Shown in pieces: positions 1-41,246 of a stretch of 41,246 bases of DNA (the stretch's first letter is position 1; the number at the start of each line of letters is the position of its first letter). Source of the DNA: an uncultured Methanosarcinales archaeon. Lineage in GTDB: Archaea; Nanobdellota; Nanobdellia; Woesearchaeales; GW2011-AR9. The position numbers were made by a program, and so were the translations under genes. The stretch lies in NCBI GenBank assembly GCA_964429715.1, contig CAYSCV010000002.1, positions 1 through 41,246 of the forward strand, given 5' to 3'. Below the pieces are notes generated by a model. That model saw only the letters and a list, made by a program, of their open reading frames with translations, was not told the DNA's origin and made no database searches.

Positions 1-2247
1 GAAATGTTTCGCATGGGCATCCCCGTCCCTCCCGGCTTCTGCATCACCGCACAAACGTATAAAGAATTTATCGAACGCACAAATATCAAACCTAAAATCC
101 AACAACTCCTCATCAATTTAAACGTCGAAGATAACACCCAGCTCCAAAAAGTCGCGGAACAAATCCAACGCGTCATCCTTTCTACACCCATTCCAGAGGA
201 AATGGCTGATGAAATTATGGATTCCTATGATCTTCTGGGCACTAACACCAAACGCGCCAACGATTTAGTCCAAGCCCAAGAAGTCTTTGTCGCCGTCAGA
301 TCTTCTGCAACCGCTGAAGACTTACCCGAAGCCAGTTTCGCCGGCCAGCAAGCCACATTCCTTAACGTCAAAGGCCGTAAAAATGTCGTCGGTGCCGTCT
401 TAGCCTGTTGGGCATCTTTATTCACTGCCCGCGCCATCTATTACCGTGTAAGAAATAATTTTGACCACATGAACGTCTTAATCTGCGCCGTCGTCCAAAA
501 AATGGTTAATGCCACCCAATCAGGGATCATGTTTACCGCTAATCCTGCTACCAATAACGAAAATGAACTCGTTATCGAAGCCATTTACGGCTTAGGAGAA
601 TTAATCGTCGGCGGCGAAGTCAATCCTAACATGTACCTGGTTGACAAACAAACCAAACAAATCAAAAAAATTGAAATTCGCAAACAAGATATGGGTTTAT
701 TTCGTAACGCTCAAGGCGAAAACGAAAAACGCCCCATCCCTCTCGACACCCAAGCCCGCCAAGTCTTAAACGAAAAACAAATTTTAGAATACGCTCGACT
801 AGGAAAAAAATTAGAAGAACATTATGGCAAACCCCAAGACATCGAATTCGCCGTTGAAAACAATAACGACTTATACATAGTCCAAACCCGTGCCATTACC
901 ACTTTAAAAAAGAAAGATCCTGTCACCCAACGCCCAACCATCACTGAAGAAGCCGGAAAAATTCTCTTAAAAGGCGAAACCGCCTCCGCCGGCGTATACT
1001 CTGGTCGCGTACGTATCGTCCACGACCCTTCTGAATTAGGCAAAGTCGAAAAAGGGGATATCCTAGTAACCACCATGACCACTCCTGATATGGTTCCCGC
1101 CATGCAGCGCGCCGGAGCAATCGTAACCAATGAAGGCGGACTCACTTGCCACGCTGCTATTGTTTCAAGAGAAATGGGTACACCTTGTTTGGTAGGTACG
1201 GAACACGCAACCGAAGTATTAAAAGACGACGAAATCATCACCGTTCACGCCACGCGTGGCTTAGTCTACGAAGGCAAAGTAGAAACCCAAGCTCCTCTCG
1301 CCACATCAACCAAACCACAATCTCAAACACAAACAAATGGCAAAATCATTACCGCAACCGATATAAAAATAATCCTTGATCTTCCTGATCTCGCCGAACG
1401 TGCCGCCACAACCGGTGCCGATGGCGTCGGTCTCGTAAGATTAGAAATCATGATCGCATCAGGTGGCATTCACCCCGCCGAATACATCCGCCAAAACAAA
1501 TACAAAGACTACATCACATTATTAAAAAACGGCATCCGTAAAATCGCCCAAGCCTTCAAAAACAAACCCGTCTGGATTCGCAATTCTGACATGCGTTCTG
1601 ATGAATATCGTAACTTAACCGGTGGCAATCAAGAACCCCACGAAACTGATCCTATGCTCGGTTGGCACGGCATCCGTCGCCTGCTCGACGAACCAAAAAT
1701 ACTCAAAGCCGAATTCCAAGCCATCGCCGATTTACACGCCGAAGGTTACAAAAACGTCGGCATTATGATCCCTTTCATCATTCGCGTTGAAGAACTGCGC
1801 AAAGCCAAAAACATCATGCGCGAAACCGGCTTAGAACCCTGTCGTGATATTGACTTTGGCATCATGGTCGAAACTCCCGCAGCCTGTTGGATAATTGAAG
1901 ACCTCTGTAAAGAAGGCCTCAGCTTCGTCTCCTTTGGCACGAACGACTTAACCCAACTCACGTTAGGTATCGACCGCAACAACGAACGCTTATCAAACAG
2001 ATTCGACGAAATGCATCCTGCCGTTTTAGGTGAAATCGCCAAAGTCATCAAAACCTGCCAGAAATATCACGTCACCACTTCCATTTGCGGTCAAGCTGGT
2101 TCTCGTGCCGTCATGGCCGAATTCCTCGTTCACCAAGGTATTGACTCCATCTCCGCTAATGCCGATGCTGTTGATGAAATCCGCACAACTGTCGCCAGAG
2201 TAGAACGAAAAGTGCTATTGGAAGGGGAGAGACACAAAGTGAAATAA
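1..2247 (+). CDS. ppsA: Phosphoenolpyruvate synthase (pyruvate, water dikinase), 5'-partial; frame open from base 1
   Basis: 747-aa ORF. ATP-grasp N-terminal region (GIPVPPGF, RSSATAEDLPEASFAGQ). Swivel phosphohistidine motif GGLTCHAAIVSREMGTP. C-terminal PEP-utilising barrel (GIMVETPAA, SFGTNDLTQ). No stop between the window edge and the first ATG. Confidence 0.88.
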   Translation, partial: EMFRMGIPVPPGFCITAQTYKEFIERTNIKPKIQQLLINLNVEDNTQLQKVAEQIQRVILSTPIPEEMADEIMDSYDLLGTNTKRANDLVQAQEVFVAVRSSATAEDLPEASFAGQQATFLNVKGRKNVVGAVLACWASLFTARAIYYRVRNNFDHMNVLICAVVQKMVNATQSGIMFTANPATNNENELVIEAIYGLGELIVGGEVNPNMYLVDKQTKQIKKIEIRKQDMGLFRNAQGENEKRPIPLDTQARQVLNEKQILEYARLGKKLEEHYGKPQDIEFAVENNNDLYIVQTRAITTLKKKDPVTQRPTITEEAGKILLKGETASAGVYSGRVRIVHDPSELGKVEKGDILVTTMTTPDMVPAMQRAGAIVTNEGGLTCHAAIVSREMGTPCLVGTEHATEVLKDDEIITVHATRGLVYEGKVETQAPLATSTKPQSQTQTNGKIITATDIKIILDLPDLAERAATTGADGVGLVRLEIMIASGGIHPAEYIRQNKYKDYITLLKNGIRKIAQAFKNKPVWIRNSDMRSDEYRNLTGGNQEPHETDPMLGWHGIRRLLDEPKILKAEFQAIADLHAEGYKNVGIMIPFIIRVEELRKAKNIMRETGLEPCRDIDFGIMVETPAACWIIEDLCKEGLSFVSFGTNDLTQLTLGIDRNNERLSNRFDEMHPAVLGEIAKVIKTCQKYHVTTSICGQAGSRAVMAEFLVHQGIDSISANADAVDEIRTTVARVERKVLLEGERHKVK

Positions 2248-2326
2248 TCTATTTTCTCTTTATTGTTCTCCATTCTCAATAAGAATAGTGAGTGCGTTTA
2301 ACAGATTTTTCAATTACATTTAATAT

Positions 2327-2902
2327 TTACCTTTCCTTTAAAAATTGTAATGCTTCATCTCGGACAAACATCTTCTTTTTGTAATAATCTATTTGCTCAT
2401 TGATCAAAGAAATATCTTTAATAGTCTGTCTGGGGTTTGCTTCAAATTGTAAAATACAAGTCGCAACCTCTTCTACTGTTTCGGCAATCACATCACACGT
2501 TGTCAACACAAAAGGACATTTCCAATTTTTATAAATTCTTCCGCCAATTTCTTTCTCATTTTTATTGAATTTTCCGTTTCGTGGCGCAAGACCGATAAGT
2601 GGTTTTTTAAAATATTTTGCAATCAACATCTCCTGTGAACCACCAACACTGATATCATCAGTCAAATAGACAATCACCACATCAGCGTTCGAAATCATAA
2701 AACAATCTCTGCCAAATACTAATGAAGGGTTGTTTTCATCCCACTCTGTCGTTTTCGGCGTTTTAGTCGGATCAAGATTTATGATCTGTAAACCTGTTTT
2801 TTCTTCCAATGTGTTACAAAAATTCACACGCCAATCTTTCGTACCAAAAATAGAATGAGGATTAACCTTTCCCGCAATATATAGTTTAAGTCCTTCATTC
2901 AT
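2327..2902 (-). CDS. Nucleoside 2-deoxyribosyltransferase-like protein (191 aa from internal ATG)
   Basis: ORF-track frame 2327..3019 trimmed to MNEGLKLYIAGK, because the upstream part overlaps the Rpp21 gene. The ATG (2902-2900) overlaps the Rpp21 stop as ATGA. The LYIAGK N-terminus and the VVIVYLTDDISVGGSQEMLIA block fit the NDT/YtoQ-type fold. Confidence 0.55.
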   Translation of the reverse strand: MNEGLKLYIAGKVNPHSIFGTKDWRVNFCNTLEEKTGLQIINLDPTKTPKTTEWDENNPSLVFGRDCFMISNADVVIVYLTDDISVGGSQEMLIAKYFKKPLIGLAPRNGKFNKNEKEIGGRIYKNWKCPFVLTTCDVIAETVEEVATCILQFEANPRQTIKDISLINEQIDYYKKKMFVRDEALQFLKER

Positions 2903-3207
2903 TTTAGCGGTATCCTCAGAAACTTTTTGCAATCCAAACACGAAATAACCACCTTTCCTTTCCGCGTCCGCACTCGCGCATTCACTCCTGGCTGCAAATA
3001 ATGATAACAATGTTTGCAATATCGTCGTTTCAATTCTAACGGTATTTTCGTCTTCACCTTCATCGCAATCTTTCGCGCCAACGCAACATACCTATGTGCT
3101 GAACTTCGGTCCAGAGAAAACGCCGTAGCCGCTTCTCGAAACAAAATCTTGATTCGTTGCAGTGCTATCTCTTTTTGCTGCGTCTTCGAAAAAGTAGGTC
3201 GACCCAT
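2899..3207 (-). CDS. rnp4: RNase P protein component 4 (Rpp21/Rpr2 family), 102 aa
   Basis: Basic helical N-terminus (QRIKILFREA, AHRYVALARKIAMK) followed by a zinc ribbon RYCKHCYHYL...VISCLDCKKF (CxxC...CxxC). Start moved to MGRPTFSK; the longer track ORF begins with a hydrophobic, unlikely extension. Confidence 0.8.
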   Translation of the reverse strand: MGRPTFSKTQQKEIALQRIKILFREAATAFSLDRSSAHRYVALARKIAMKVKTKIPLELKRRYCKHCYHYLQPGVNARVRTRKGKVVISCLDCKKFLRIPLK

Positions 3208-40882: not shown

Positions 40883-40932
40883 ACGTTTTATACACCTCAA
40901 GTACGCAACACTCGTATCGTTTCTCGTTGCAC

Positions 40933-41175
40933 TTAAACAATTAGTTGTTTAATCTCCTCTAATCGTTTAAGATCAATACTTGTCTCAATTCCATACGTCG
41001 ACACTTCCCGATCTCTTCTCACCGTAGCGCTTTCTACCTCCCCCTCTATCGCAAACACATCAAAACGTAACACTAAATCTTTTTCAAAATCTAACTTTCC
41101 CTCATCAATCAAGCGCAAAAGCACAGTGACTGTAGAGAACTTTGCAAAAAGCAATTTGTAATAATTAGTTAGCAC
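40933..41175 (-). CDS. Hypothetical protein (80 aa, GTG start)
   Basis: ORF only; no motif recognised and no ATG near the 5' end. Confidence 0.3.
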   Translation of the reverse strand: MLTNYYKLLFAKFSTVTVLLRLIDEGKLDFEKDLVLRFDVFAIEGEVESATVRRDREVSTYGIETSIDLKRLEEIKQLIV

Positions 41176-41246
41176 CGATAGGTGCTTAGATAAGCTTAAA
41201 ATTGCGCCATTGCAAAGTCTCTAAGAGGAGTTTGAGTAAAAAATAT

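Follow-up and report, generated by a model that had tools for sequence, protein, structure and literature searches.

Does the base composition of an archaeal genome segment follow the DNA strand, or does it follow the strand that codes? The question is raised by the stretch shown above, contig C2 of a metagenome-assembled genome (MAG; here G000) from an uncultured Woesearchaeota (DPANN) archaeon with a small genome. We refer to the contig, all 41,246 nucleotides (nt) of it, as the window; the MAG comprises 1.38 Mb in 158 contigs and is 87% complete. A sequence-only reading of the window had counted C and G on the plus strand at four places (positions 1-60, C 22/G 12; 12001-12060, C 25/G 5; 17041-17100, C 15/G 9; 39541-39600, C 16/G 13), and all of these hand counts were exact. 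It had claimed that composition tracks the DNA strand rather than the coding strand, that synonymous usage is set by a strand-specific mutational bias without a switch in 41 kb, and that the skew is unusually strong for an archaeon. The data presented below uphold each of these claims. The window very probably lies in a long domain of one polarity, where a very strong, DNA-strand-dependent mutation bias has brought weakly selected sites to their equilibrium composition.

We determined the composition of the plus strand over the entire window and found 12,718 A, 12,141 T, 10,227 C, and 6,160 G, corresponding to a GC skew of -0.248 and an AT skew of +0.023 (C versus G, binomial z = 31.8). Every one of the 40 2-kb windows was negative, with a range of -0.121 to -0.366, and no switch was present within the 41 kb. 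Intergenic DNA was skewed likewise (-0.218). To describe genes, we used open reading frames (ORFs) chosen by a simple longest-ORF picker, not by a gene finder; the window set consisted of 40 nonoverlapping ORFs of at least 100 amino acids (aa), of which the plus strand carries 17 and the minus strand 23. The sign of the difference between G and C at third codon positions (G3 and C3) followed gene orientation almost perfectly. C3 exceeded G3 in 17 of 17 plus-strand ORFs, with a mean coding GC3 skew of -0.64, and G3 exceeded C3 in 21 of 23 minus-strand ORFs, with a mean of +0.59 (plus versus minus, Mann-Whitney p = 1e-7). Pfam matches agreed with the gene names given earlier for a trxB-like gene, pepA (M17), gyrA with an intein, the hydrolase, aIF5A, aRF1, and the FHA protein; the supposed DUF45 gene had no match. 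The features that carry the skew in the window are as follows.

1..41246, unstranded: uninterrupted domain with a C-rich plus strand and a G-rich minus strand, through genes in both directions and the spacers (skew values as given above)
35942..39799, plus strand: gyrA with an intein, an example of the C-ending codon dialect (coding GC3 skew -0.64 overall, -0.73 in the C-extein, -0.52 in the intein)
13813..14586, minus strand: a gene serving as an example of the G-ending dialect (coding GC3 skew +0.93; G3 0.40, C3 0.02)

Expressed as excess bases per 1000 nt, a SkewDB-style measure, the window has an excess of 98.6 C. In published data, archaea average 7-8 and bacteria 23-25 (PMC12999951), so that the window exceeds the archaeal mean ∼13-fold. 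A piece of the Escherichia coli genome analyzed with the same script gave 21.7 excess bases per 1000 nt and an effect of the DNA strand at 4-fold degenerate sites near 0.

We then compared these values with the remainder of G000. Nearly all contigs longer than 5 kb had an absolute GC skew of 0.2-0.47 (length-weighted mean, 0.263); since the orientation of contigs is arbitrary, so is the sign of their skew. Each contig was internally uniform, with one internal switch, on contig C6, in 1.38 Mb. In the set of 932 ORFs used for strand tests, 98.1% followed the sign of their own contig. At 4-fold sites, genes on the G-rich strand had A.309, C.052, G.375, and T.264 (GC skew, +0.754), compared with A.262, C.397, G.057, and T.284 for genes on the C-rich strand (GC skew, -0.751). 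At these freely evolving sites, G:C on the G-rich strand is about 7:1, whatever the direction of the gene. The effect of the coding strand was ∼0 and that of the DNA strand was 0.72-0.75 in G000 and in G001 and G003, two genomes of the same genus. The departure from Chargaff's second rule of parity (PR2), seen at synonymous and noncoding sites alike, thus follows the DNA strand and not the transcribed strand. Given the neighboring base, site composition was nearly identical for both gene orientations, and the depletion of C was independent of context. These results show that composition at 4-fold and 2-fold sites is set by the DNA strand and the neighboring base, not by the direction of transcription.

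The consequences reach beyond silent sites. Codon tables fall into two dialects by strand (e.g., GCC, 3% versus 43%), and Val makes up 8.3% of the residues encoded on the G-rich strand compared with 4.25% of those encoded on the C-rich strand. Met, Gly, and Arg are also commoner in proteins encoded on the G-rich strand, and Ile, His, Pro, Asn, Thr, and Gln are ∼30% rarer. The strand bias was thereby shown to extend to codon positions 1 and 2 and to reshape the proteins.

A strand-specific pattern could arise by mutation or by selection on individual genes, and orthologues that occupy the other strand class in a congener distinguish the two. The genus of G000 is represented by G001, G002, and G003 (G003 and G031 are identical, one genome under two labels). 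Among G000-G003 orthologue pairs strongly skewed in both genomes, 30 were in the same strand class and 34 were in opposite classes; both sets displayed skew at full strength and had the same mean amino-acid identity, ∼71%. Two blocks of the window are informative.

16551..23626, unstranded: block of aRF1, a gene resembling P-loop kinases, an ABC transporter pair, and SecD/F, whose orthologues on G003 contig C50 have the opposite skew
12258..15922, unstranded: block of aIF5A, a 257-aa ORF, and the FHA protein, whose orthologues on G003 contig C8 have the opposite skew

In the first block, skews were +0.7 or -0.5 in G000 and -0.6 or +0.75 in G003, at 54-82% identity; for aRF1, the GC3 skew was +0.76 in G000 and -0.61 in G003, at 82% identity. 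The orthologues of the second block lie beyond a skew switch that adjoins MCM. Amino-acid differences between opposite-class pairs were also directional. Val in the G-rich-strand copy was matched by Ile in the C-rich-strand copy 226 times and the reverse was seen 51 times (z = 10.5), and Gly/Ser, Glu/Gln, Arg/Lys, and Met/Ile differences displayed the same kind of asymmetry. Because collinear orthologues on the other strand class carry the full, reversed skew, the skew is mutational and does not reflect gene-specific selection, as had been proposed for synonymous usage in the window.

We further investigated which substitutions underlie the bias. Sites of 2-fold degeneracy change by transitions only, and on the G-rich strand of G000 these sites had C/(C+T) = 0.10 and G/(A+G) = 0.45, with agreement between the gene orientations (0.096 versus 0.103 and 0.426 versus 0.484, respectively). 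At equilibrium, this composition implies a ratio of C-to-T over T-to-C of ∼9 and of G-to-A over A-to-G of ∼1.2. Such an imbalance is the signature expected from deamination of cytosine (and adenine) on one strand, and it was common to all strongly skewed relatives. Purines at 4-fold sites of the G-rich strand amounted to 0.68 in G000 and 0.67-0.73 across the genus, compared with 0.35-0.45 in the relatives G027, G032, and G033, where this strand is T-rich in the classic G+T pattern. In G000, G exceeds C on the G-rich strand but A slightly exceeds T at 4-fold sites, so that the strand is not keto-rich in the classic sense. As transitions cannot produce a purine excess, a second asymmetry, from pyrimidine to purine, must be present; it is specific to this genus and accounts for G being far above C while A is close to T.

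Strength varied widely among the relatives. The DNA-strand effect, 0.72-0.75 in G000, G001, and G003, was 0.50 in their congener G002, 0.39-0.55 in G015, G016, G027, and G032, 0.25 in G033, and 0.2 or less in ∼20 other genomes of the family and order. In weakly skewed relatives, G005 for instance, what little skew there is goes with the coding strand, with G3 above C3 in both orientations. This spread indicates that the trait is lineage-specific and variable. Gene content was compared across 31 genomes of the order. UDG, PolB, and a bacterial-type MutS (MutS1) were present in G000 and across the family. NucS/EndoMS went undetected in most members of the family, whether their skew was weak or strong, and was found mainly in weakly skewed genomes of other families; PolY was found in 0 of 31 genomes. 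As a separate observation, full-length NucS/EndoMS and MutS1 were almost mutually exclusive among the 31 genomes. Those with canonical NucS (G021, G023-G026, and G030) had no full-length MutS1 match, G023 having weak partial MutS_V matches only, and the family of the MAG has MutS and lacks canonical NucS.

We next consider the replication landmarks. G000 has a single Orc1/Cdc6 gene, on contig C6. Relatives carry a second Orc1 paralogue that is far better conserved (60-84% identity across the order) and usually lies between MCM and the PolD subunit DP2, forming a replication island across the order. Examples of this island, made up of MCM, Orc1 with its origin recognition boxes (ORBs), and DP2, are the following.

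G002 contig C59, 4.5-12.2 kb: MCM-Orc1/ORB-DP2 island
G013 contig C3, 350-358 kb: MCM-Orc1/ORB-DP2 island
G015 contig C1, 126-134 kb: MCM-Orc1/ORB-DP2 island

In many relatives, ORB elements of the form TTCCA-NN-GGAAA-N4-GGGG are located just upstream of the conserved Orc1 gene, often as an inverted pair around an AT-rich stretch of 0.2-0.9 kb; the G003 pair consists of two 21-nt arms on either side of 690 bp with a GC content of 15-25%. In four genomes with exact matches, the full motif was confined to this locus, and a fifth, G034, had no exact match. The canonical archaeal oriC layout of inverted ORBs, an AT-rich stretch, and Orc1/Cdc6 is thus found in relatives only. Neither ORBs nor an orthologue of the conserved Orc1 were found in the G000 assembly. 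The apparent absence of MCM, PolD DP2, and Cdc6_C from G000 was read as an assembly gap and not as a loss, since the three cluster in relatives. In G003, an inversion splits the island; one of its ends is the ORB site, and the other adjoins MCM on contig C8, at which point the skew reverses again. The conserved Orc1 gene is on the G-rich strand in ∼6 lineages and on the C-rich strand in ∼4.

Some further features of these loci were noted. Gene orientation bias apparently flips at ORB/Orc1 on G032 contig C1 and G033 contig C2, a weak signal in a rough test (∼p = 0.02 and 0.07, respectively); ORFs pointing away from the ORB made up ∼60% of the left arm and 53% of the right arm (57-66% of coding bases). 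On G033 contig C2 (599 kb, with the ORB pair at 376 kb), the 4-fold GC skew was -0.23 to -0.48 over 1-340 kb and faded to -0.03 to -0.10 over 384-596 kb, with its sign kept. The skew at a metagenome locus (L267) appears to be one-sided in the same way.

The internal switch on G000 contig C6 (locus L021) was a candidate origin. It is of the type seen at origins, from negative to positive, at ∼10.15 kb, 4.9 kb from Orc1/Cdc6, and sits in a 90-bp AT-rich spacer between divergent genes for a PIN-domain protein and an unknown 259-aa protein. We rejected this candidate, as the orthologue of the C6 Orc1 gene lies inside uniform skew over 126 kb in G003 and over 332 kb in G032, where contig C2 shows no change around it. 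In addition, synteny with G003 stops at ∼12.7 kb and no ORB is present. The PALP gene that follows the switch (10987-12003) is almost unskewed, and copies of a dispersed hairpin repeat lie in an adjacent 627-bp spacer. The switch is probably a rearrangement scar. The repeats belong to a GC-rich hairpin family, TTCCATCAGGAAAGTCACGA; C6 (L021 12,428-12,620) has the variant TTCCAT..GGAAAGTTCGGA with TCTGTCAC units. Other copies were detected on G000 contigs C18, C27, C28, C31, C32, C38, C41, C83, C129, and C151, mostly at contig ends. They probably break the assembly, and they may mediate inversions.

The asymmetry is of a known kind, at a strength in an archaeon that resembles that of mitochondria. 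Strand-specific codon and amino-acid usage in Borrelia burgdorferi is the classic strong bacterial case. G000 shares with bacterial, Lobry-type skew the PR2 deviation at synonymous and noncoding sites independent of transcription, the two codon dialects and two proteomes, and the placement of highly expressed genes on the G-rich strand. It differs in being much stronger (4-fold skew of 0.75; 99 excess bases per 1000 nt versus the bacterial mean of 23-25), in having a G-rich strand that at 4-fold sites is purine-rich and not T-rich, in an archaeal replisome (MCM, PolD, and PolB in the family, Orc1 in G000), and in the lack of a flip at the origin-like locus of its relatives. Animal mitochondrial genomes likewise have codon and amino-acid usage molded by skews at neutral sites, and inversions there reverse the skew. 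The neutral-site skew there is of comparable size, but in a 16-kb organelle genome with strand-displacement replication, not a megabase cellular chromosome.

A close likeness in the literature is with order UBA1400 within the candidate phyla radiation (CPR) of bacteria (Microgenomates Ch65, Collierbacteria, and Beckwithbacteria), whose closed genomes show a G/C disparity and a cumulative skew that is monotonic (Kadnikov et al. 2020, PMC7143001); C is 29.8% and G 15.0%, a skew of -0.33 (PMC7143001). As in that order, the window combines a strong G/C disparity with no A/T disparity and an ORF split of 17 plus to 23 minus. The two systems are alike in magnitude, in independence from gene distribution, in occurring in small uncultured genomes, and in a strength that varies between related lineages. 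They differ in that the UBA1400 members are bacteria for which closed genomes prove a monotonic skew, whereas G000 is fragmented, and in that no decomposition by codon site or test with strand-switched orthologues was reported there. The signature confined to G and C, with purine loading, is otherwise described for a few CPR bacteria. Archaeal skews have been found to be 3-4 times weaker than bacterial ones and put down mainly to gene orientation (Paravel et al. 2026, PMC12999951), and recent surveys suggest that strand-specific mutation or repair is missing in archaea (PMC12999951; bioRxiv 10.1101/2023.11.15.567178). In the DPANN archaeon 'Ca. Forterrea', the skew switches beside cdc6 (PMC5905446). 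With typical archaea such as Pyrococcus abyssi and Forterrea, the lineage of G000 has in common the archaeal replication proteins and, in relatives, a single ORB-type locus by orc1/cdc6; it differs in a skew ∼13 times the mean that ignores gene orientation and does not switch at orc1/ORB. Our literature search turned up no account of a strong skew in Woesearchaeota.

Taken together, these data suggest how the bias is built up. A C-to-T-type transition asymmetry on the G-rich strand, shared with the skewed relatives, forms its first component, and a pyrimidine-to-purine asymmetry specific to the genus is the second, loading purines onto the same strand. DNA replication would set the polarity, the G-rich strand being the leading one. 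We infer this assignment from gene placement, because 523 of the ORFs are on the G-rich strand versus 409 on the C-rich strand (56% G-rich), as are L14 of the ribosomal protein operon, on C20(+), and both rpoB pieces, on C31(-) and C11(+). More tentatively, in strongly skewed Woesearchaeales the polarity may ignore the only canonical ORB/Orc1 origin, replication being approximately one-directional or starting from a site with neither ORB nor Orc1. One strand would then be of leading type along most of the chromosome or all of it, and together with the pyrimidine-to-purine asymmetry this would drive G:C to ∼7:1; we consider this extension possible but rather unlikely.

Several observations weigh against this account. 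Even in comparison with the closest genome to G000 (mean amino-acid identity, 81%), 4-fold sites are near saturation (identity of 0.48 versus 0.33 at saturation), and the direction of mutation cannot be inferred from them; a substitution spectrum estimated from divergence was dropped, as exchangeabilities were flat and uninformative near saturation. No repair or replication gene that we tested follows the strength of the skew. It had been suggested that a switch be sought near cdc6/orc1, and here the expectation failed: no flip was found at the sole ORB/Orc1 locus of G002, G015, G032, and G033 or at that of four distinct strongly skewed metagenome contigs, and none of the metagenome contigs with strong skew displayed one. 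The sole flip at an ORB pair, from negative to positive in G003, coincides with the inversion breakpoint. A coding-strand or translational origin of the skew, the usual case in archaeal surveys (PMC12999951), would account for weakly skewed relatives such as G005. In G000, genes on the two strands have opposite G3/C3 and spacers are skewed, which eliminates a coding-strand cause; with a coding effect of ∼0 and orthologues that reverse upon a change of strand, we rejected this explanation as highly improbable. An artefact of assembly, binning, or sequencing might be suspected in a fragmented, incomplete MAG. However, the ORFs are intact and conserved, contigs are internally uniform, and the same skew is present in MAGs of several unrelated studies and in raw metagenome contigs. 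The independent MAGs rule out an artefact of this assembly, and we give artefacts in general almost no credence.

The strand-dependent mutation bias leaves a choice between geometries of replication. In one, the chromosome is replicated with a single polarity, by unidirectional theta replication or from an origin adjacent to the terminus. One strand is then of leading type for nearly the whole circle, and where the sign changes locally, a recent inversion has left its scar. Eight strongly skewed lineages show no flip at their sole ORB/Orc1 locus, nor is there one at the other Orc1 paralogue. This speaks for a single polarity, as do uniform stretches of 332, 413 (G015 contig C1), 568, and 599 kb among genomes 1.2-1.6 Mb in size, the location of the G003 and G000 C6 switches at synteny breaks, and the closed CPR genomes with the same G/C-only disparity and monotonic cumulative skew (PMC7143001). 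The 568-kb stretch is G032 contig C1, uniformly negative in sampled windows with its ORB at 129 kb. On the other hand, the strongly skewed genomes compared are all unclosed, Orc1 on either strand leaves the origin cassette without a fixed polarity, inverted ORB pairs are the architecture of a bidirectional origin, the ORB in G032 and G033 apparently marks a flip in gene orientation bias, and the complete but weakly skewed G034 has two sign domains. We therefore regard single-polarity replication as conceivable but doubtful. Alternatively, replication could be bidirectional in the ordinary way, from an origin away from ORB/Orc1 that is unassembled or unrecognized, with the window inside one replichore. 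This would fit uniform contigs that never exceed about half a genome, the negative (80-560 kb) and positive (640-1520 kb) domains of G034, neither of whose switches is at orc1, and the single internal switch in 1.38 Mb of G000. An archaeal origin away from the sole ORB cluster and both Orc1 genes would itself be unusual, and G032 contigs C1 and C2, together ∼900 kb of 1.3 Mb, showed no switch in sampled windows, nor did the first 20 kb of its 197-kb contig C3. This second geometry is a serious candidate, short of probable. A single replichore for the window, as proposed from its sequence, is consistent with the data.

A few ORFs of the window depart from the strand pattern, and one RNA gene was identified on the G-rich strand.

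8626-9258, plus strand: nucleotidyltransferase (NTase) ORF escaping the skew (GC3 skew -0.23)
9250-9615, minus strand: ORF escaping the skew (plus-strand value +0.24)
10769..11479, minus strand: 236-aa ORF with no Pfam match and a skew of the wrong sign (plus-strand GC3 skew +0.16)
24489..25199, minus strand: 236-aa ORF with no Pfam match, nearly unskewed (GC3 skew -0.06)
28249..28615, minus strand: archaeal RNase P RNA gene, on the G-rich strand (RF00373, 107.7 bits)

The escaping ORFs at 8626..9615 are likely young or mobile DNA, and the NTase cassette is located on other contigs in relatives. ARAGORN found no tRNA genes in the window. The gyrA intein (36,179-37,549) has the sign of its host gene but a weaker skew (GC3 of -0.52 versus -0.73 in the C-extein), which fits a long stay on the same strand without full equilibration or, alternatively, different constraints on the intein. 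In three relatives (G007:C14, G018:C47, and G026:C33), aRF1 is split into two matching halves in open frames of 516-876 aa, a structure that suggests inteins. The spacer at 11,522-11,653 contains three hairpins in a row; its 36-52-nt core is single-copy in G000 and matches copies on several contigs of G001, G002, and G003 at 94-100%. The arrangement suggests a small element that is mobile or structured.

The bias described here is stronger than that of almost any bacterium and contrasts with the view of archaea as having almost no strand mutation bias. In such genomes, inversions can be read from sequence alone as changes of sign, young or foreign genes as unskewed ORFs, and mutation pressure on proteins as strand-dependent Val/Ile swaps in the same protein. 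Tools based on codon usage or composition, including those for binning, detection of horizontal gene transfer, prediction of expression, and phylogeny, are misled unless the strand is considered. The lack of a flip at the sole ORB/Orc1 locus of relatives makes the fork geometry of DPANN archaea testable. Since a genus with an archaeal replisome and a bacterial-type MutS shows a purely strand-bound bias, archaeal replication can imprint a strong mutational asymmetry on the chromosome.

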